7,652 nt of DNA from Candidatus Iainarchaeum sp. (GTDB taxonomy: Archaea; Iainarchaeota; Iainarchaeia; Iainarchaeales; CSSED10-239). Both the position numbers and the translations under genes were made by a program. Below the pieces are notes generated by a model. The model saw nothing but the letters and a program-made list of their open reading frames with translations. It did no database searches and was not told the DNA's origin. The DNA lies in NCBI GenBank assembly GCA_003559395.1, contig PWLL01000002.1, positions 1 through 7,652 of the forward strand, written 5' to 3'. Numbering within the stretch: position 1 is the first letter of the stretch; every line of letters starts with the position of its first letter. Below are positions 1,650 to 7,652 of this stretch, one piece after another.

Positions 1650-1984
1650 ACTGGATGTTCTGGATCTGGCTTTTCCTTTGGATCGGTTGGGGGCAGAGCT
1701 TCGTTCGTTCTGTTCCTCCGATGGTGAGGTCGCGTAGATACGACAAGCGATCGAAGATCATCCTGGACAAGATGGTGGCTCATGCATCCGTTCTTGCTTC
1801 AGGTGTCAGCTCGATCGAAGAGCGAGAGCATCACGAGCGCGAGTTCGAGAACACAAGCGTTGCTCTCGACGCTGTCTTCGATCAATGGAAGATGGAGCTA
1901 GAACATGCGAGGAAGCTGAACAGACGCCAGTTCGTGTGGTTGGGATCCATGTTGCTGGTGTTGCTCTTCCTGCACATCACATAG
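1646..1984 (+). CDS. Small membrane protein with a Trp-rich N-terminal TM and a C-terminal TM
   Basis: GTG 1646 overlaps the upstream stop (GTGA) and follows GGGAGGAA (1636-1643). ATG 1655 is an alternative start. Hydrophobic segments are WMFWIWLFLWIGWG and FVWLGSMLLVLLFL, separated by a charged helical middle. Confidence 0.55.
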   Translation: MNWMFWIWLFLWIGWGQSFVRSVPPMVRSRRYDKRSKIILDKMVAHASVLASGVSSIEEREHHEREFENTSVALDAVFDQWKMELEHARKLNRRQFVWLGSMLLVLLFLHIT

Positions 1985-1995
1985 AGGAGAAGAAG

Positions 1996-3237
1996 ATGGG
2001 GAAGCCCCAGGAGAACCATATCAAGGCAGCCCGAGCTGTCTGGGAAGTCATGCAGAAGGAAGCAAGCTCACGAGGGATGGCTCTGTCGAAGAACAAGCAG
2101 TTCGGAGATGGCAGGGTCATCATCGGAGCCGTCAAGACGTTCATCAAGGTGCTCAACGACGAGCGTGGATGGAGGTTCAACGACACGGACTTCGATCTGG
2201 TCCGGTCGTACCTCAAGTCGACCGGGAACGTCGTCGTGCTTTCCAAGGTGGAGAAGTACCGCTACCGGATCTTCATCCGAGAGGAGTGGAACGAGACCCC
2301 TCTCGTGAAGGGGTCTCCGAAGGAGCCGGACTCGATCGATCGACGTGCGGAGAAGCTCACCGCCGATGAAGCAGGAGAGACACGCGAACCTGCTCCTGTC
2401 GAGTTCAAGTGCGTGAGGTGTGTCCCTCCTTCAGTCTGGGGTTCTCAGCCTGCTCTCAATGCGCACATGGCCTTGCACAAGAACGATCAGAAGAAAGAGA
2501 CGCCAAAGCCGAAGATCTACGCAGTGTCTCTTGGTGAGTCTCAGGCTGCGATCCTGACCGTGCTCCTCAAGAACGGCGGCATCGTTTCTCATGTCAAGGG
2601 TGCAACGACCCAGAAGATCGCGAGACAGGATCCTCGGCTTCGGGGCAAGACCAACCAGTCGCTCGGATCGACGATGATCAAGCTGGAGAACGATGGTCTG
2701 ATCACCAGGGATGTGCGTAAGAAGCGGACCTACCGGGTCGAGTTGACCGAGTATGGAAAAGAGGTTGCTGCCGATATCAACAGCTATCGCGCAGCTACTC
2801 AGGTCATCCTTGACTACCTCAAGGAGAACCCGGTGACCGAGTGGAACACCGCGACCATGAAAGATGATCTCGGGGCGTCCGCAGGAGTGGTACCTGATCG
2901 GGTGAGAAGAGCGCTGACCACTCTTGAACATGAGGGGGAGATCACCAGAGGGCAAGCGTCGATGAAGAAGACCCGTATCGTTCTCGCTGGTGCGGAGGGT
3001 CAAGTAGCTGAGCCAGTGAAGGACGCGGAGTCCTTGCCCGCTCCCTCTGGTTTGTTCGAAGAACTCGACGACGCGGTTCTCTTGACGATCTTGGAGAGGA
3101 GGCTCAACAGGAAGGAAGAGGTCGCTTCTTACAAGGAGAAGGTCGAGTTCATCGATTCGATCGTCAGTGAAGCCAACGACGGGAAGATCTCCCCGCTGAA
3201 GGCTCTGGCCGACATCCAGGAAGCGCTGAAGCTCTAG
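1996..3237 (+). CDS. DNA-binding protein: C2H2-like zinc finger followed by two MarR-like winged-helix domains and a C-terminal helical tail
   Basis: ATG 1996 follows GAGGAGAAGAAG and lies 11 nt after the upstream stop. Finger FKCVRC-x14-HMALH at 2404-2478. wHTH-1 is about 2536-2775 (ESQAAILTVLLKNGG..LENDGLITRDVRKKRTYRVELTEYG). wHTH-2 is about 2794-2986 (VILDYLKENP..LTTLEHEGEITRGQASMKKTRIVL). Confidence 0.75.
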   Translation: MGKPQENHIKAARAVWEVMQKEASSRGMALSKNKQFGDGRVIIGAVKTFIKVLNDERGWRFNDTDFDLVRSYLKSTGNVVVLSKVEKYRYRIFIREEWNETPLVKGSPKEPDSIDRRAEKLTADEAGETREPAPVEFKCVRCVPPSVWGSQPALNAHMALHKNDQKKETPKPKIYAVSLGESQAAILTVLLKNGGIVSHVKGATTQKIARQDPRLRGKTNQSLGSTMIKLENDGLITRDVRKKRTYRVELTEYGKEVAADINSYRAATQVILDYLKENPVTEWNTATMKDDLGASAGVVPDRVRRALTTLEHEGEITRGQASMKKTRIVLAGAEGQVAEPVKDAESLPAPSGLFEELDDAVLLTILERRLNRKEEVASYKEKVEFIDSIVSEANDGKISPLKALADIQEALKL

Positions 3238-3245
3238 GAGGAGCT

Positions 3246-3620
3246 ATGTCAGAAGAACTCGTGGACGAGATACTCACGAGACTCGATCGAGCAGGTGAGC
3301 TTGCAGGAGACGGGTTCGAGGTTCTGATCAGGCAGGTCTACCTCTCGGTCGTCACGGATGTCCTCTGGATGATCTTCCTGGGCGTGATCACAGCCTTCTT
3401 CGTCATCACGATCCGGCGTTGTGGCTACATGGGTGGAGAGCACCGGTGGCACGTCAACAAGGGGCCGTACAACGAGTCAAGGGAGCTTGCGGTGATCGGA
3501 TCATCGATCGGTCTCTTGCTCTCGACAGGCGTGATGTTCGCGCTCTTGATGGCTGTGATCCGCAAGCTGATCAACCCAGAGTTCTATGCCATCAGGTACA
3601 TCTTCCAGGCGGTGTCGTGA
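3246..3620 (+). CDS. Membrane protein, 2 predicted TM helices
   Basis: AGGAGGAG RBS (3236-3243) precedes ATG 3246. TM segments are VLWMIFLGVITAFFVITI and LAVIGSSIGLLLSTGVMFALLMAVI. Confidence 0.7.
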   Translation: MSEELVDEILTRLDRAGELAGDGFEVLIRQVYLSVVTDVLWMIFLGVITAFFVITIRRCGYMGGEHRWHVNKGPYNESRELAVIGSSIGLLLSTGVMFALLMAVIRKLINPEFYAIRYIFQAVS

Positions 3621-3769
3621 TGGTCGTCATCGTCGTTGCGTTCTTCGTCTCCTTCGTTGTACTCTTCCTGGGGCTCATGTTCATGGCACTGTTACTTGAA
3701 GCGTGGCCTCTTGTCGCGCTCCTAGTGCTGGTGTTCTGGGCTATGAGTAGAACGAAAGTGCCTCGCTAG
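3620..3769 (+). CDS. Very small (49 aa) hydrophobic membrane protein
   Basis: ATG 3620 shares one base with the upstream TGA (TGATG). Product MVVIVVAFFVSFVVLFLGLMFMALLLEAWPLVALLVLVFWAMSRTKVPR looks like a TM hairpin with a basic tail. The tracked start at 3419 would overlap the previous gene by 200 nt. Short length keeps confidence moderate. Confidence 0.5.
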   Translation: MVVIVVAFFVSFVVLFLGLMFMALLLEAWPLVALLVLVFWAMSRTKVPR

Positions 3770-3774
3770 GGGTA

Positions 3775-3803
3775 TTGCAAGATAGGGCGTTATGTGCTAG
3801 AAT
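3775..3803 (+). promoter_or_regulatory. Sigma70/SigA-type promoter with extended -10
   Basis: TTGCAA (3775-3780), a 17-nt spacer, then TGc-TAGAAT (TG 3795-3796, hexamer 3798-3803). It lies in the largest AT-richer gap of the window. Predicted TSS is about 3809-3811. Confidence 0.5.
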
Positions 3804-3828
3804 AGAGGGCGTCGGAAGAGGTATGCCC

Positions 3829-3866
3829 AAGGCCGGTACCAACAGGTACCGGCCTTTCCTCGTTTC
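3829..3866 (+). terminator. Rho-independent terminator hairpin
   Basis: GGCCGGTACC (3831-3840), AACA loop, GGTACCGGCC (3845-3854). The stem extends by AA/TT to 12 bp and is followed by TTTCCTCGTTTC. Confidence 0.6.
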
Positions 3867-3890
3867 GTGACGAGCCCACTAGGAGACCGG

Positions 3891-4511
3891 ATGACACTAG
3901 CAACTGATGTCATCGCATATCACGTGGATCTGAGCGATGAACTCTATCGTCTCAGGTTCGCCGAGGATTTCGCTGACTGGTTGATGGACCACCGCAGGGA
4001 AGAAGAGGCGCGTGAGTTCCTTCACCTGGTCAAGACGTACGAGGAGTCAACGGAGGAGTACGACCTTGAGGACGTGATCGCGATCGCCGAGGGGTTCAAC
4101 CCGATCGTCGATGTCAACGAGGAGATGGCCGGAGGCAGGAACGCTTCGGATCTCGCGATCCAGATCCTTGAGGAACAAGAAGGCAACCTGAGATGGGATC
4201 AGGAAGCTGCGTTGATCAACCAGTACATCCGTGATTCTGAGCCTGTCTCAGCAGTGCCACGGGATCTCCTCGAACCCGAGTTCCCGAACGTCGATGTGTA
4301 CTTCGATCTCAACCGACCGATCGTGCGCAACGTCCTCGGGATCCCGTTCCATCTCGCAGCCCATGGTCATCATCGCGGCGCGAGAGCGTTCATCCAGGAC
4401 ATGAAAGCCCTACTCAGGACCAAGCCGACGAACTACGCTCTGTTTCAGTTGGCTTGGTCTTACGTCATGATCTACCCAGATCCAGATCAGTACGGACAGG
4501 ACGATTGGTAA
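3891..4511 (+). CDS. Hypothetical, strongly acidic protein
   Basis: AGGAG (3881-3885) lies 5 nt upstream of ATG 3891. The tracked GTG 3867 sits in the terminator tail with no RBS. Hand count is about 41 D/E versus about 17 K/R in 206 aa. No motif recognised. Confidence 0.7.
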   Translation: MTLATDVIAYHVDLSDELYRLRFAEDFADWLMDHRREEEAREFLHLVKTYEESTEEYDLEDVIAIAEGFNPIVDVNEEMAGGRNASDLAIQILEEQEGNLRWDQEAALINQYIRDSEPVSAVPRDLLEPEFPNVDVYFDLNRPIVRNVLGIPFHLAAHGHHRGARAFIQDMKALLRTKPTNYALFQLAWSYVMIYPDPDQYGQDDW

Positions 4512-4547
4512 GCACCCGCGCACCGCGCACCAGCTAAGGAGAACGCC

Positions 4548-4868
4548 ATGGAGAAGGCAGCACCGGTCTATCCGCCACAGCCCGAGTCGATCGATGTCGA
4601 CATGACGACCGTGTACACGGTGATGTCGTTGTTGACCGTCTCGACCGTCGGGCTCGGGATCTCCACGACCTTGTTGTGGAGGAAGGCCCGGAAGAACGAG
4701 GAGTACATCACCGCTCTGGGGGACTACGTCTCGCGCCTGGTGAAGGACACCGAGTGCGGGAAGGTTGCTTACCAGACCTTCCTCGATGACGAGGAGGAGG
4801 ATGAGGTCGTCGTGTGGGACGACGAGAGCGGTTCGCCGTTCCCAACCGAGAGCCAGGAGGTTGAATGA
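4548..4868 (+). CDS. Single-pass membrane protein with an acidic C-terminal tail
   Basis: AAGGAG (4536-4541) precedes ATG 4548. TM segment is VYTVMSLLTVSTVGLGISTTLLW, followed by RKARK and then DDEEEDE. Stop overlaps the next start (ATGA). Confidence 0.7.
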   Translation: MEKAAPVYPPQPESIDVDMTTVYTVMSLLTVSTVGLGISTTLLWRKARKNEEYITALGDYVSRLVKDTECGKVAYQTFLDDEEEDEVVVWDDESGSPFPTESQEVE

Positions 4869-6748
4869 GCATCCTTGATGAGTTGATCCCGGATGCGTCC
4901 ATCGCTGAGGAGTATGTTGGGCGCAAGATACACGGAGGGCACGAAGACCTGGAGATCCTCGACTGGGCACGTCTGGTCGGGGACAACGTCCTGATCAAGG
5001 GACCGACCGGGCCAGGGAAGCGTCAGCCTCTCTCGATTCCTGTGTTGACCCCTCACGGCTGGACCACCAATGGTGATCTATCGATAGACGATGAGATCAT
5101 CGGACGGAACGGATGTCCGACCAAAGTCATCGGCCTTCATCCGATAGAGAAGGCTCTTGCATATCGGATCACCTTCAATGATGGCACGAGCACGCTCGCT
5201 GACGGTGATCATCTCTGGACCGTTCAGAGTCGTAAACAGCGCCGTACCACCGGCAGGTACCAGATCTTGACGACCAAGGAGATCCTTGACCGAGGGATCC
5301 TTGAGCATGGATCGGATCGTGCAACGTCCTACAACTGGTACCTGCCACTCGTAGACCCGATCCAGCACGACAAGGTCGAATTGGAGATCGAGCCGTACCT
5401 GCTCGGAGTCCTGCTCGCGAACGGATCGCTGACTGAGACCTCTGCGGTCTTCACAACCAACGACGAGTTCATCGCTGATCGTGTGCGTAGCGAGACCGAT
5501 GTCAACGAGACCACTCATGCAACTTCCACTGCGAAGCGATGGTTGGTCTACAACAAGGTTCCTGCGCTGAAAGATCTCGGTCTTTACGGTCTGAAGTCCA
5601 GGGAGAAGTTCATCCCCGATCACTACCTCGTGGCGCACGAGGACGCTCGTCGAGATCTTCTCGCCGGGTTGATGGACTGTGATGGGTCTTCTCGCGAGAA
5701 CCGACGTGATCGTTACTCCACCTTCAGCGTCCAACTGGCAGAAGGAGTGGCAAGTCTTGTTCGCTCGCTTGGTGGTGTTGCCAAGGTCTCAACCAGAGAC
5801 CGAAGCGACGGTGACATTGAGTACGAGGTCTCACTCTGGATGCCGGAGACTCCGTTCACTCTCCCAAGGAAGGCAGCACACTCCCCTGGCGAAGAGTGGT
5901 TCCGTGCCATCGCCTCCATCGAACCTGATGGTGACCGCGAGATGCGCTGCATCACCGTGGACGCAGATGACGGTCTGTATGTGATCGAGCATCACATCGT
6001 CACCCACAACACGATGCTGTGCCGTGCGTACTGTGCTGCGCGCGGTATCCCGTTCGTCAACATCAACCCTGGCACGGCGGTCGAGCCGTCGATGCTCACG
6101 GGGAAGGAGGTTCTGCGTTCAGCGTCGTCGTACTGGGTCGATGGGATCCTCACGGCGGCGCTTCGTCGTGGAGACGTGGTGATCCTCTTCGATGAGTTGA
6201 ACTTCTGGCCTCCAGGGGTGACGGGTTTCCTCCACTCGCTCACCGACGATCAGCGCTACATCTACCTCTACGATCATCTCGTGGAGTACGAGGACGAGGA
6301 AGGCAACAAGCAGGCGATGCCGGAGATCATCAAGGCTGCTCCTGACACGCTCATCGTCGCGGCCTACAACCCGCGCTACGAAGGGACGTTCCGCCCGAAC
6401 CAGGCGTTCGAGAACCGGTTCAACGTGCAGTTCAGGTGGGACTACTCGGAGAAGGTCGAGAACACCCTGATCTCGTTGCCGACGCTGAAGGCGATCGCGA
6501 AGGAGCTTCGGCGTATGCATGGCACCGGTGAGATCACGGTCCCGATCTCGACGAACAAGCTGATGCATTTCCAGAAGATGACCGATGATCTAGGATTGAC
6601 CGCAGCGATCGACAACTTCATGTCGTACTTCGATGGCTCCGAGCACGGTGCTGTCGAGAACGTCATGAACCTGAACCGGTCGCGTCTCAAGGAGGAGGTC
6701 AGGTCTGAGACGGGTGTCGATCCTGACAAGGGACGGTTCGTGAAGTAG
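4865..6748 (+). CDS. AAA+ ATPase of the MoxR/CobS (AAA_5) type, interrupted by an intein; predicted spliced product 297 aa
   Basis: AGGAGG (4855-4860) precedes ATG 4865. Walker A GPTGPGK (5000-5020) is completed by T at 6011-6013. Walker B VVILFDE is at 6176-6196. The AAYNPRYEGTFRPNQAFENRF segment matches the AAA_5 sensor/Arg region. Confidence 0.9.
   Translation: MSILDELIPDASIAEEYVGRKIHGGHEDLEILDWARLVGDNVLIKGPTGPGKRQPLSIPVLTPHGWTTNGDLSIDDEIIGRNGCPTKVIGLHPIEKALAYRITFNDGTSTLADGDHLWTVQSRKQRRTTGRYQILTTKEILDRGILEHGSDRATSYNWYLPLVDPIQHDKVELEIEPYLLGVLLANGSLTETSAVFTTNDEFIADRVRSETDVNETTHATSTAKRWLVYNKVPALKDLGLYGLKSREKFIPDHYLVAHEDARRDLLAGLMDCDGSSRENRRDRYSTFSVQLAEGVASLVRSLGGVAKVSTRDRSDGDIEYEVSLWMPETPFTLPRKAAHSPGEEWFRAIASIEPDGDREMRCITVDADDGLYVIEHHIVTHNTMLCRAYCAARGIPFVNINPGTAVEPSMLTGKEVLRSASSYWVDGILTAALRRGDVVILFDELNFWPPGVTGFLHSLTDDQRYIYLYDHLVEYEDEEGNKQAMPEIIKAAPDTLIVAAYNPRYEGTFRPNQAFENRFNVQFRWDYSEKVENTLISLPTLKAIAKELRRMHGTGEITVPISTNKLMHFQKMTDDLGLTAAIDNFMSYFDGSEHGAVENVMNLNRSRLKEEVRSETGVDPDKGRFVK
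5021..6010 (+). mobile_element. Intein (330 aa) with class 3 signature and a LAGLIDADG homing-endonuclease domain, inserted in the P-loop
   Basis: Removing 5021-6010 restores GPTGPGK|T. The C-terminus is THN followed by +1 Thr. Block A-like sequence is PVLTPHGWTTNGDLSIDDEIIG. Block B is ADGDHLW, with His at 5210 and Trp at 5216. Block F is MRCITVD, with Cys at 5948. Thr precedes HN at 6002. LAGLIDADG motifs are LLGVLLANGS (5399-5428) and LLAGLMDCDGS (5657-5689). Confidence 0.85.
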
Positions 6749-6825
6749 CACTGCTCGGAGTGATCCGAGAGCTGATGGGGTACTCCGCCCGCGATCGGCG
6801 CTCCTGTACTCCAGGGGCTCGTCAA

Positions 6826-6858
6826 GGAGGGGGGAGGTCTTCTCCGCCTCCCCCCTCC
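6826..6858. repeat. Perfect 12-bp G/C-rich inverted repeat (hairpin) in the ATPase-partner intergenic gap
   Basis: GGAGGGGGGAGG (6826-6837), 9-nt loop TCTTCTCCG, CCTCCCCCCTCC (6847-6858). No U-tract follows. The structure is seen directly; its function is unknown. Confidence 0.8.
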
Positions 6859-6880
6859 GATGAACCTTCGAAGGGGAACC

Positions 6881-7652
6881 ATGAGAGGGAAACTGACACA
6901 ACGACAGATCGACAACGTCAAGGATGTACGCAGGTATGGAGTGATCTCTGTTCTGGAGAAGACGAACAGGATCCTCGGATCGCAAGATTCGGTCGTCAAG
7001 GTCGAGTACGAGAACGGGATCCCGGCTCCAGCGATGACGGATGGCAAGAAGATCATCATCAACACGATGTATGAGCCGGTTCGCGGAGCGCTTGAGAAGG
7101 GGTTCGACCCATCGTCGATGATGATCGCGACGGGGTTGAACTACCACGAGCTTGCGCACTGTCTGTTCATGCCACGGATCACCTCGCCATACATCAAGAA
7201 GATCCGCGAGAAGGGCATGTTCGAGACGTGGAACATCCTCGAAGATCAGACGGACGAGACTCGGTTCGTGAAGCTCTATGAGCCTGCGAAGCACTACTTC
7301 TCTGCGCTCGTTTCGAACTTCATCATCGGCTCGGATGCGTTCACGGCAGGGTCGAACTACCTGCTCGTGTCCGGGCGGAGGTTCATCCCTCAGAGGATGA
7401 GACTCAAGCTGATGGACGACTTCTCTCATCCAGATCTGATCCCGGAGATCGATGCCCTGATAACCGAGTACAAGTCTCTGGTCTATCCAGATGATGAGGA
7501 TCGGATGTTCGAGGTCGTGACCGAGTTCCATGACCTGATCAGAGCTGTTCGACCACCGGACATGGGTGGGATCTTCCACGAGAACATCAGTGTTGGTCAG
7601 CCGAAGAAAGGGCTCTCCAAGGAGCTTCTCGAAGCCCCTGAACCTTCTTCAG
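6881..7652 (+). CDS. Metallopeptidase-like (HExxH) protein resembling the CobT/DUF2201 N-terminal domain; likely partner of the ATPase; 3'-partial
   Basis: I translated this frame by hand from ATG 6881 and found no stop to the window end. That explains its absence from the ORF track. AAGGGGA lies upstream. Motifs are AMTDGKKIIINT (7031-7066), HELAH (7145-7159) and WNILEDQTDETR (7229-7264). Alternative ATG at 6860 has no RBS. Confidence 0.8.
   Translation, partial: MRGKLTQRQIDNVKDVRRYGVISVLEKTNRILGSQDSVVKVEYENGIPAPAMTDGKKIIINTMYEPVRGALEKGFDPSSMMIATGLNYHELAHCLFMPRITSPYIKKIREKGMFETWNILEDQTDETRFVKLYEPAKHYFSALVSNFIIGSDAFTAGSNYLLVSGRRFIPQRMRLKLMDDFSHPDLIPEIDALITEYKSLVYPDDEDRMFEVVTEFHDLIRAVRPPDMGGIFHENISVGQPKKGLSKELLEAPEPSS

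Follow-up and report, generated by a model that had tools for sequence, protein, structure and literature searches.

We analyzed a window of 7,652 nt (the whole stretch taken from contig PWLL01000002.1 of assembly GCA_003559395.1) which, from position 3775 onwards, carries a promoter followed by four genes on the same strand: one for an acidic protein, one for a single-pass membrane protein of 106 aa, one for a MoxR/CobS-like AAA+ ATPase and the 5' part of one for a partner protein with a von Willebrand factor A (vWA) domain. The locus lies in the replication/early part of the genome of a tailed phage that has not been cultured; its closest relatives in culture are phages of Gordonia and Brevibacterium. 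A previous description made from the letters only (the sequence-only reading) had proposed this four-gene layout, with a 36-nt gap between the first two genes, an ATGA overlap between the second and the third, and a 132-nt gap (6749-6880) before the fourth; the list of open reading frames (ORFs) and the sequence of the plus strand bore out all of these spacings. It had also taken the third ORF, of 627 aa, for a MoxR-like ATPase. The family was right, since the spliced sequence scores 56.1 bits against Pfam AAA_5 (cutoff 22), but the ORF actually encodes a 297-aa ATPase plus a 330-aa intein that had been overlooked. This class-3 intein, which splits the P-loop of the ATPase, is the main new fact at the locus. 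By an exact-protein look-up we retrieved three metagenomic contigs that encode an identical 627-aa product and share 98.5-99.6% identity with the window. The longest of them, a 35.5-kb ENA contig of which we examined 21.9 kb (L001; window position = L001 position - 5136), completes the partner gene at its 3' end and shows that the operon extends beyond the window.

Pfam places LAGLIDADG_3 and Hom_end in the middle of the AAA_5 protein, and when the 627-aa ORF was compared with phages by tblastn, the matches fell almost only on residues ~40-400 and lay in helicases, terminases and other P-loop proteins from phages unrelated to this one. The junctions in the ORF read GPTGPGK / RQPLSIPVLTP ... 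HHIVTHN / TMLCRAY. The ortholog in L008, one of the related metagenomic phage loci used for comparison (L008-L012 and L033-L036), has 298 aa and shares 80% identity with the two exteins; the alignment has one gap only, of 330 residues, which falls between K52 and T383 of the precursor. Given this clean gap against an intein-less ortholog, the boundaries of the intein are unambiguous. In L009, the intein-less insertion site reads AAGGGCCCGACCGGGCCGGGCAAG / ACGATGCTGTGCCGG. A search with the spliced protein returned 35 homolog clusters, 30 of them at 71-84% identity, and all 35 are intein-less and 295-330 aa long. The same intein-bearing allele is present in three other assemblies, and the frame is intact over 627 codons in the four of them.

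Class-3 inteins are defined by the lack of a nucleophile at position 1 and by a WCT triplet formed by Trp B12, Cys F4 and Thr G5, and the Lys/Thr of Walker A has been called the ‘classic’ P-loop intein site (PMC5050341). Judged by its sequence, the intein of the window shows every one of the class-3 features given in that work. Its position 1 is Arg53 of the precursor, a non-nucleophilic residue (R, A, M, V, G or E in 10 relatives), and the Trp at B12, the Cys at F4, the Thr at G5, the His-Asn pair and a Thr or Ser at +1 are all kept in an alignment of 10 inteins. Regarding the homing endonuclease, the second LAGLIDADG motif (LLAGLMDCDGS) keeps its Asp, and the first one (YLLGVLLANGS) has an Asn in the catalytic Asp position, which is common to three of nine related inteins. 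The G+C content at third codon positions is 0.65 in the intein vs 0.75-0.82 in the exteins, and the GC skew -0.03 vs +0.06 to +0.18, a composition consistent with a foreign origin.

The intein belongs to a large family, with 18,505 representative proteins at E <= 0.001, hosted by DnaB-like helicases, primase-helicases, AAA_24 proteins, RuvB and others. Its closest relative (55%) interrupts a DnaB-like helicase, and the intein of the Mycobacterium phage Alice gp175 helicase is 35% identical. At least three other, divergent metagenomic AAA_5 ATPases, P0087, P0139 and P0219, carry a related intein at the same site, with extein identities of 34%, 30% and 21%, respectively. A survey of 784 actinophage inteins found 19 types of host protein, none of them an AAA-ATPase or CobS-like (bioRxiv 10.1101/2025.01.02.630785). 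An intein in a MoxR/CobS-like ATPase is new to curated lists, and it is not unique. We also observed that in L035, which comes from a relative within the clade, the P-loop of the DnaB helicase is interrupted by a class-3-type intein (L035 6136-7280; GQGK/ALANG..., EDHLW, LAGLIDADG), only 29% identical to the one in the window. Within one phage lineage, different members have different P-loop genes invaded. The coordinates of all the features of the locus are collected in Table 1.

Table 1. Features of the locus, in window coordinates.
Feature	Position	Strand	Basis or remarks
Sigma-70-type promoter, TTGCAA, 17-nt spacer, TG-extended TAGAAT	3775-3803	+	Consensus scan and conservation
Leader hairpin AAGGCCGGTACC-aaca-GGTACCGGCCTT, 12 bp	3829-3856	+	Fold z = -3.26
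Leader motif GACGAGCCC	3869-3877	+	~22 nt before the ATG of the acidic-protein gene
Acidic-protein gene	3891-4511	+	ORF; 206 aa
Gene for the 106-aa single-pass membrane protein	4548-4868	+	ORF; stop overlaps the ATPase start (ATGA)
627-aa precursor ORF of the MoxR/CobS-like AAA+ ATPase	4865-6748	+	N-extein 4865-5020, C-extein 6011-6748
Walker A, GPTGPGK/T	split at K52/T383 of the precursor	+	Intein insertion
Class-3 intein, 330 aa	5021-6010	+	Gap against the 298-aa ortholog; splicing residues
Intein block B, DGDHLW	5201-5218	+	W118
LAGLIDADG homing-endonuclease domain, within the intein	5396-5689	+	Pfam LAGLIDADG_3 30.4 bits, Hom_end 26.3 bits
Intein block F, MRCITVD	5942-5962	+	C362
Intein block G, HHIVTHN	5990-6010	+	T380, H381, N382; +1 Thr = T383
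Walker B, VVILFDELN	6176-6202	+	ATPase C-extein
Conserved structured element in the ATPase-vWA spacer	6800-6858	+	Comparison of related loci
Small hairpin of the spacer element	6800-6818	+	U.G wobbles, mismatches if read on the other strand
Invariant GGGGCTCGTCA	6814-6824	+	Spacer element
12-bp G/C hairpin of the spacer element	6826-6858	+	Compensatory changes
vWA partner gene, 5' part, 257 of 611 codons in the window	6881-7652	+	ATG 6881; runs off the window
HELAH, residues 89-93	7145-7159	+	Partner N-domain
NILEDQTDE	7232-7258	+	Partner N-domain

In the spliced ATPase, the residues K52, T53, E114 and R188 (Walker A, Walker B and the Arg finger) are invariant in 29 homologs. The protein matches phrog_249 (E = 5.9e-34), and its nearest PDB sequences are the midasin AAA domains, NorQ (9qh4, E = 4e-14) and CbbQ (6l1q, E = 5.5e-12).

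A vWA domain with a MIDAS (metal ion-dependent adhesion site) in the rest of the downstream gene was a test set beforehand, and the full protein from L001 contains one, with an intact DxSxS. This full partner of 611 aa is made of a ~250-aa N-terminal domain (N-domain) with the HELAH motif, an acidic low-complexity linker (~255-330) and a C-terminal vWA domain, which scores 27.3 bits against Pfam VWA (cutoff 23.8) and 27.2 bits against VWA_2 (cutoff 27) and whose MIDAS, FLLDMSSSM, is a perfect DxSxS. We aligned 30 homologs, down to 21% identity and including proteins of Gordonia and Brevibacterium phages: D444, S446, S448, T514 and D542 of the MIDAS are invariant, and so are N87, H89, E90, H93, P98, D122 and E126 of the N-domain. 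The partner matches phrog_5298. In a profile search of the PDB, its best match was the cobaltochelatase subunit CobT (9uka, E = 6e-14), covering only the linker, the pre-vWA segment and the MIDAS. The AlphaFold2 (AF2) model of the N-domain is a confident one, with a predicted local distance difference test score (pLDDT) of 89.6, and it matched the fold of the N-termini of viral VWFA/CobT proteins with E-values down to 8e-11; these proteins come from Gordonia phages, Cantare, tailed viruses of haloarchaea and uncultured Caudovirales. Its top matches in the PDB, all non-significant, were minigluzincins, thermolysin and M1 aminopeptidases, with E >= 0.8 for selecase, abylysin and thermolysin. The HExxH motif and this weak fold resemblance suggest that the N-domain may be zincin-like.

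The sequence-only reading had expected a vWA partner to be co-conserved with the ATPase, and we found the pair together in every relative examined. The two genes are adjacent, or 1-2 small inserted ORFs apart, in all the metagenomic relatives (L008-L012, L033-L036), and likewise in 16 cultured-phage records and in a contig of Dermacoccus abyssi; such ORFs are inserted in L008, L011 and L033. The conservation of the ATPase is of 53-84% vs 32-46% for the partner.

The two genes upstream of the pair behave differently. The acidic protein most likely starts at ATG 3891, preceded by a GGAG ribosome-binding site, and less likely at GTG 3867. It has an isoelectric point of 4.4, with 41 Asp and Glu vs 17 Lys and Arg, and gave no match in Pfam, PHROG, NCBIfam or PADLOC. 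Its orthologs share 26-53% identity and are confined to the same phage clade, with one detectable relative in an index of 5.8 billion proteins, and its AF2 model, built from a 2-sequence alignment, reached a pLDDT of 60.6, too poor for a fold search. The 106-aa protein is also acidic and has one hydrophobic segment (residues 25-43); its orthologs, 25-54% identical and likewise clade-restricted, keep a PVYPP motif, the transmembrane segment followed by LWRK, and a TxCG motif. The sequence-only reading had proposed these two proteins as module-specific accessories, an idea that the comparison did not support. The two genes are in the same order in the related loci tested, and the genes that flank them farther away on both sides are conserved too, so this is synteny of the whole region, seen in one clade only, and not specific to them. 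In the Gordonia and Brevibacterium phages and in Dermacoccus, where the pair is kept at 34-41% ATPase identity, we detected no homolog of the acidic or the membrane protein beside it (tblastn E > 0.2, hhalign probability < 1%). A pair that is kept in distant phages without detectable relatives of the two upstream genes is just what the earlier text had named as the pattern that would speak against their role.

Moreover, ORFs are inserted between the membrane-protein gene and the ATPase gene in L010, L033 and L034. The stop of the preceding gene overlaps the ATPase start by 4 nt in the window, L008, L009, L010 and L034, and by 29 nt in L011. The stop that overlaps in L010 and L034 is that of the inserted ORF, not of a homolog of the membrane protein. 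This stop/start coupling is the only hint of a functional link between the upstream gene and the ATPase. We therefore regard the acidic and membrane genes as probable lineage-specific companions, neither of them demonstrably part of the machine.

The promoter in front of the acidic-protein gene had been described as the only clear one in the window. A consensus scan gave indeed this single match, where 2.5 +/- 1.4 were expected, a count not above chance. We judged the promoter real on the grounds of its conservation in related loci and not of the scan count: an extended -10 element, TGnTAnnnT, is found at the equivalent position in eight out of eight related metagenomic phage loci, usually with a TTGnnn hexamer 17-18 nt upstream, and 55-95 nt ahead of the orthologous gene. 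Every related locus has a leader hairpin at this position. In the window and in L008 it resembles a terminator, and its only Rfam matches are generic terminator stems. Its U-tract, however, is not conserved, which favors a stem of the 5' leader over a terminator. The motif that follows, GACGAGCCC, occurs nine times in L001 vs 1.15 expected and precedes the orthologous gene in seven of the eight related loci. We also noticed a second promoter of the same design before the NADAR gene (L001 4236-4420; TTGCAT-17-TGcTAGAAT). A strong terminator-like hairpin precedes it, and its leader contains a T-tract hairpin, CTGACGAGCCC and AAGGAG. With this second copy, the leader made of promoter, hairpin and GACGAGCCC is a repeated regulatory unit in the genome.

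The gap before the fourth gene had been predicted to be structured, and the 132 nt fold with a minimum free energy of -69.7 kcal/mol, more stable than shuffled sequences (z = -3.65). The conserved element within this spacer was found in 10 related loci (L008-L012 and L033-L036 among them), with compensatory or wholesale changes in its stems; the long hairpin is entirely different in L033 and absent in L035. The element corresponds to no Rfam family: at gathering score, 95 kb of the window and its relatives gave no match, and in E-value mode window positions 3600-7100 gave generic hairpin matches only. Its invariant 11-mer, GGGGCUCGUCA, is exactly complementary both to the leader motif UGACGAGCCCC (window 3868-3878) and to the catalytic core and stem II of hammerhead ribozymes, to whose core and stem II half GACGAGCCC is identical in the upstream part of the same genome.

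Regarding these hammerheads, type II candidates form tandem arrays in the spacers that separate small early ORFs, with six in L001 (2109-3603, that is, ~1.5-3.0 kb upstream of window position 1), three in L009 (142-797) and two in L012 (850-1704). Their layout is GGAC-GAAAC-[stem III]-GUC/-[stem I]-CUGACGAG-UCC, with the next ATG ~20 nt on. The six copies of L001 share invariant GACGAAAC...GTC...CTGACGAGTCC and have covarying stems I and III, so that all the parts of a type II hammerhead (CUGANGA and GAAA cores, GUC site, three stems, stem II open) are present upstream of the window. Against Rfam Hammerhead_II they reach 26.5 bits, where the gathering score is 37. Clusters of hammerheads beside prophage genes were already known (PMC3088659). 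Two GACGAG/CTCGTCA elements inside the window were tried as hammerheads and rejected: the full pattern had 0 matches, and the half with GAAAC and GUC is absent.

Downstream of the pair in L001, the stop of the vWA gene overlaps the start of a helix-turn-helix (HTH) gene, which is followed by a second HTH gene and a gene for a 257-aa protein, all of them overlapping. Counting the acidic protein, the membrane protein, the ATPase, the vWA partner, both HTH proteins and the 257-aa protein, the operon has seven genes or more, and the region described here is its promoter-proximal part. Further upstream in L001, the same strand carries small ORFs, the NADAR gene and a PNKP-type HAD phosphatase, and a DnaB helicase gene is divergent. 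Within the window, on the plus strand, we located the phosphatase (1191-1649; phrog_415, E = 5e-43), a 414-450-aa protein (1885-3237) whose counterparts in L010 and L012 have weak or faint Pfam matches to C2H2 zinc fingers, a 124-aa membrane protein (3246-3620; phrog_1486) and a very hydrophobic peptide of 49 aa (3620-3769), which ends 6 nt before the promoter. Long antisense ORFs (e.g. 6590-7579 and 5078-5734 on the minus strand) were dismissed, because the sense genes all have homologs or domains and the DNA has 55-60% G+C. When the window was aligned to the three near-identical contigs, positions 3043-6150 (3.1 kb, the whole intein included) were identical; 16-18 single-nucleotide polymorphisms followed at 6151-7594 (1.45 kb), and 17 mismatches were clustered at 3002-3042, a recombination-type mosaic.

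The DnaB/primase surroundings are common to the homologous pair in the Gordonia phages Chidiebere, DalanDe and GMA6 and in the Brevibacterium phage Cantare, the pair being gp72/gp73 in Chidiebere and gp55/gp56 in Cantare. Given these phage relatives, a WhiB gene in one relative and Dermacoccus as the nearest genomic match, the host is likely, though unproven, to be an actinobacterium. The whole window, compared by megablast with 50,697 phage records, gave no match, so no cultured phage is close at the DNA level, and a scan of IMG/VR with the vWA partner found no relative. Among the GTDB genomes scanned with the ATPase profile, the best match was at 39% (Dermacoccus abyssi), with neither a host assignment nor a prophage copy.

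Pairs of this kind have been described before as viral cobST (PMC8651126) and as MoxR plus metallopeptidase-vWA (PMC7824862). Taking the above together, we consider it probable that the core of the locus is a viral cobST-type pair whose ATPase is made as a 627-aa precursor with a class-3 LAGLIDADG intein in its Walker A motif, and that it works through splicing and protein remodeling. In such a mechanism, the Cys of block F would attack the N-junction of the intein, Thr+1 would resolve the branch and the Asn would cyclize, so that splicing would release the 297-aa ATPase with its GPTGPGKT loop restored. Because the intein interrupts Walker A, binding and hydrolysis of ATP would require splicing, and the unspliced precursor should be unable to do either. 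By analogy with CobS/CobT, CbbQ/CbbO and NorQ/NorD, the vWA adaptor would then be the docking site of the ATPase ring, and the MIDAS of the adaptor would grip an acidic group on a target protein. Engagement of an acidic group of the client by the MIDAS is established for CobST, CbbQO and NorQD. Hydrolysis of ATP would remodel the target, and the invariant HExxH...E site might bind a metal or cut.

Several points weigh against this interpretation. Splicing, ATPase activity, binding of the ATPase to the adaptor and peptidase activity are all steps that we infer. The comparison of the N-domain with the PDB by Foldseek gave no significant match, the best one, to minigluzincins, having an E-value of 0.83. 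The Asn in the first LAGLIDADG motif means that the endonuclease may be a nickase or dead, and the intein shows no polymorphism among the four variants, which makes selection and homing tracts unreadable. Besides, the clade-wide synteny would also agree with the two upstream genes being functionally linked to the pair.

One could argue that the pair truly helps a cobaltochelatase, as an auxiliary metabolic gene set in which viral CobS and CobT would act with the CobN of the host to raise cobalamin synthesis during infection. This has been put forward for viral cobST clusters (PMC8651126), and it would agree with the PHROG names (‘porphyrin biosynthesis’ for phrog_249, ‘cobalamin biosynthesis protein’ for phrog_5298) and with CobT being the best PDB sequence match of the partner. 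However, that match leaves out the N-terminal 250 residues, for which we found no Pfam family, CobT-N included, and the 50 PDB fold matches listed for this domain do not include CobT. The CobT equivalog of NCBIfam (TIGR01651) gave the partner 26.8 bits vs a cutoff of 759, over residues 257-490 only, and no CobS model was among the NCBIfam matches of the ATPase at E <= 0.01, the sequence of which is nearer to midasin, NorQ and CbbQ. By these sequence measures, neither protein qualifies as a bona fide CobS or CobT. The partner also has an invariant HExxH site in its N-domain which, to our knowledge, is not known from cellular CobT, and neither cobN nor any B12-dependent gene came up in the 22 kb that we examined, so a role in cobalamin synthesis seems unlikely to us. 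The same HExxH...E site, invariant among the partner homologs, together with the gluzincin peptidases at the top of the non-significant fold matches and the identical domain architecture in PMC7824862, would suit a chaperone plus processing protease for virion morphogenesis, as proposed for the pair of T4-like jumbo phages and by analogy with the MoxR-vWA tail assembly of the Acidianus two-tailed virus. Here and in the Gordonia and Brevibacterium relatives, the pair lies outside the structural module, beside DnaB helicase, primase, PNKP-like phosphatase and HTH regulators and behind an early-type sigma-70 promoter; gene position is weak evidence against a role in virion assembly, and we think this role improbable.

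The sequence-only reading had pointed instead to a nucleoside triphosphate (NTP)-dependent conflict system, that is, a four-gene defense or counter-defense module with the acidic and membrane proteins as dedicated accessories. The order acidic, transmembrane, ATPase and vWA is indeed kept in the seven related loci with upstream genes examined (L008-L012, L033 and L034; by tested homology in the first five, by gene size and position in L033 and L034), the preceding gene is coupled to the ATPase start in the way described, and acidic phage proteins are often mimics or inhibitors. Nevertheless, we obtained no positive evidence for such a system. None of the four proteins matched a component of PADLOC-DB 2.0 at E <= 0.01, the locus is part of a phage's replication/early region, the conserved neighbors on both sides make the synteny unspecific, extra ORFs are inserted on either side of the ATPase in some loci, and in the distant loci nothing upstream of the pair resembles the two proteins, which leaves a conflict module very unlikely. 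Finally, the intein could be a decayed insertion that renders the ATPase gene effectively dead in this phage, as the Asn of the first LAGLIDADG motif and the rarity of the intein-bearing allele among close relatives might suggest. Against this, the frame of 627 codons is intact in the four assemblies, all the splicing residues are present (W118, C362, T380, H381, N382 and T383), the Asn variant is shared with the full-length inteins P0077, Kwan gp48 and P0139, and the C-extein differs between variants by 6-8 synonymous and 0 non-synonymous changes; a dead gene is extremely improbable.

The preferred reading, a cobST-type pair with an intein-split ATPase, matters because the viral CobS/CobT-like pair is widespread in tailed viruses and its role is disputed between a cobalamin auxiliary and a chaperone-protease. 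With closely related intein-bearing and intein-less alleles and with invariant HExxH and MIDAS residues, the clade is natural test material, and its cultured relatives in Gordonia and Brevibacterium phages make knock-outs feasible. The MoxR/CobS-like AAA+ ATPase joins the phage proteins invaded at the Lys/Thr of Walker A, in agreement with the view that class-3 inteins can move from one host gene to another thanks to the likeness of the nucleotide-binding loops. It is also a lesson for annotation: when a ‘MoxR ATPase’ ORF has double length, an intein should be looked for, and the label ‘CobT-like’ says more than is known. We see as very doubtful a further pair of linked possibilities, in which the P-loop intein would be a conditional post-translational switch gating the ATPase in infection and the spacer element a new cis-regulatory RNA. 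If this were true, pairing of the 11-mer with the leader motif or with the hammerheads would couple RNA processing to the expression of the vWA partner.

In comparison with known systems, the locus shares with the viral cobST cluster of tailed viruses of bacteria and archaea (PMC8651126) an AAA+ CobS gene upstream of a CobT gene whose product has its vWA/MIDAS at the C-terminus, the N-domain fold of the VWFA/CobT proteins of haloarchaeal viruses and uncultured Caudovirales, and PHROGs 249 and 5298, and differs from it in the intein of the ATPase, the longer operon, the two clade-specific upstream genes and the conserved structured spacer. The MoxR plus metallopeptidase-vWA pair of T4-like jumbo phages (PMC7824862) likewise has a MoxR ATPase and a vWA protein fused to an N-terminal HExxH domain, a likeness that rests on the described architecture, whereas here the phages are of another group, whose contigs reach ~72 kb and whose relatives are Gordonia-phage-like, and the pair is in the replication region instead of the morphogenesis one. 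As for cellular CobS/CobT (9uka; TIGR01651), the acidic linker, the pre-vWA segment and the MIDAS vWA align and the partner is also an AAA+ ATPase, but the N-domain is unrelated by sequence and carries the invariant HExxH. The nearest solved bacterial relatives of the ATPase are NorQ and CbbQ, whose adaptors NorD and CbbO also have a C-terminal vWA/MIDAS; outside the vWA domain, the adaptor of the window has no similarity to them. Reportedly, Kaur, Burroughs, Iyer and Aravind described vWA-MoxR NTP-dependent conflict systems in 2020, and these have in common with our locus a MoxR ATPase beside a vWA protein; in contrast, the locus is phage-encoded, lies in an early region and has no VMAP or effector components that we could recognize. 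The intein itself resembles the class-3 P-loop inteins of actinobacteriophages (PMC5050341; bioRxiv 10.1101/2025.01.02.630785) in its insertion between Lys and Thr or Ser of Walker A, its WCT triplet and its LAGLIDADG domain, and differs from them in having an Arg at position 1 and a MoxR/CobS-like AAA+ ATPase as its host protein.

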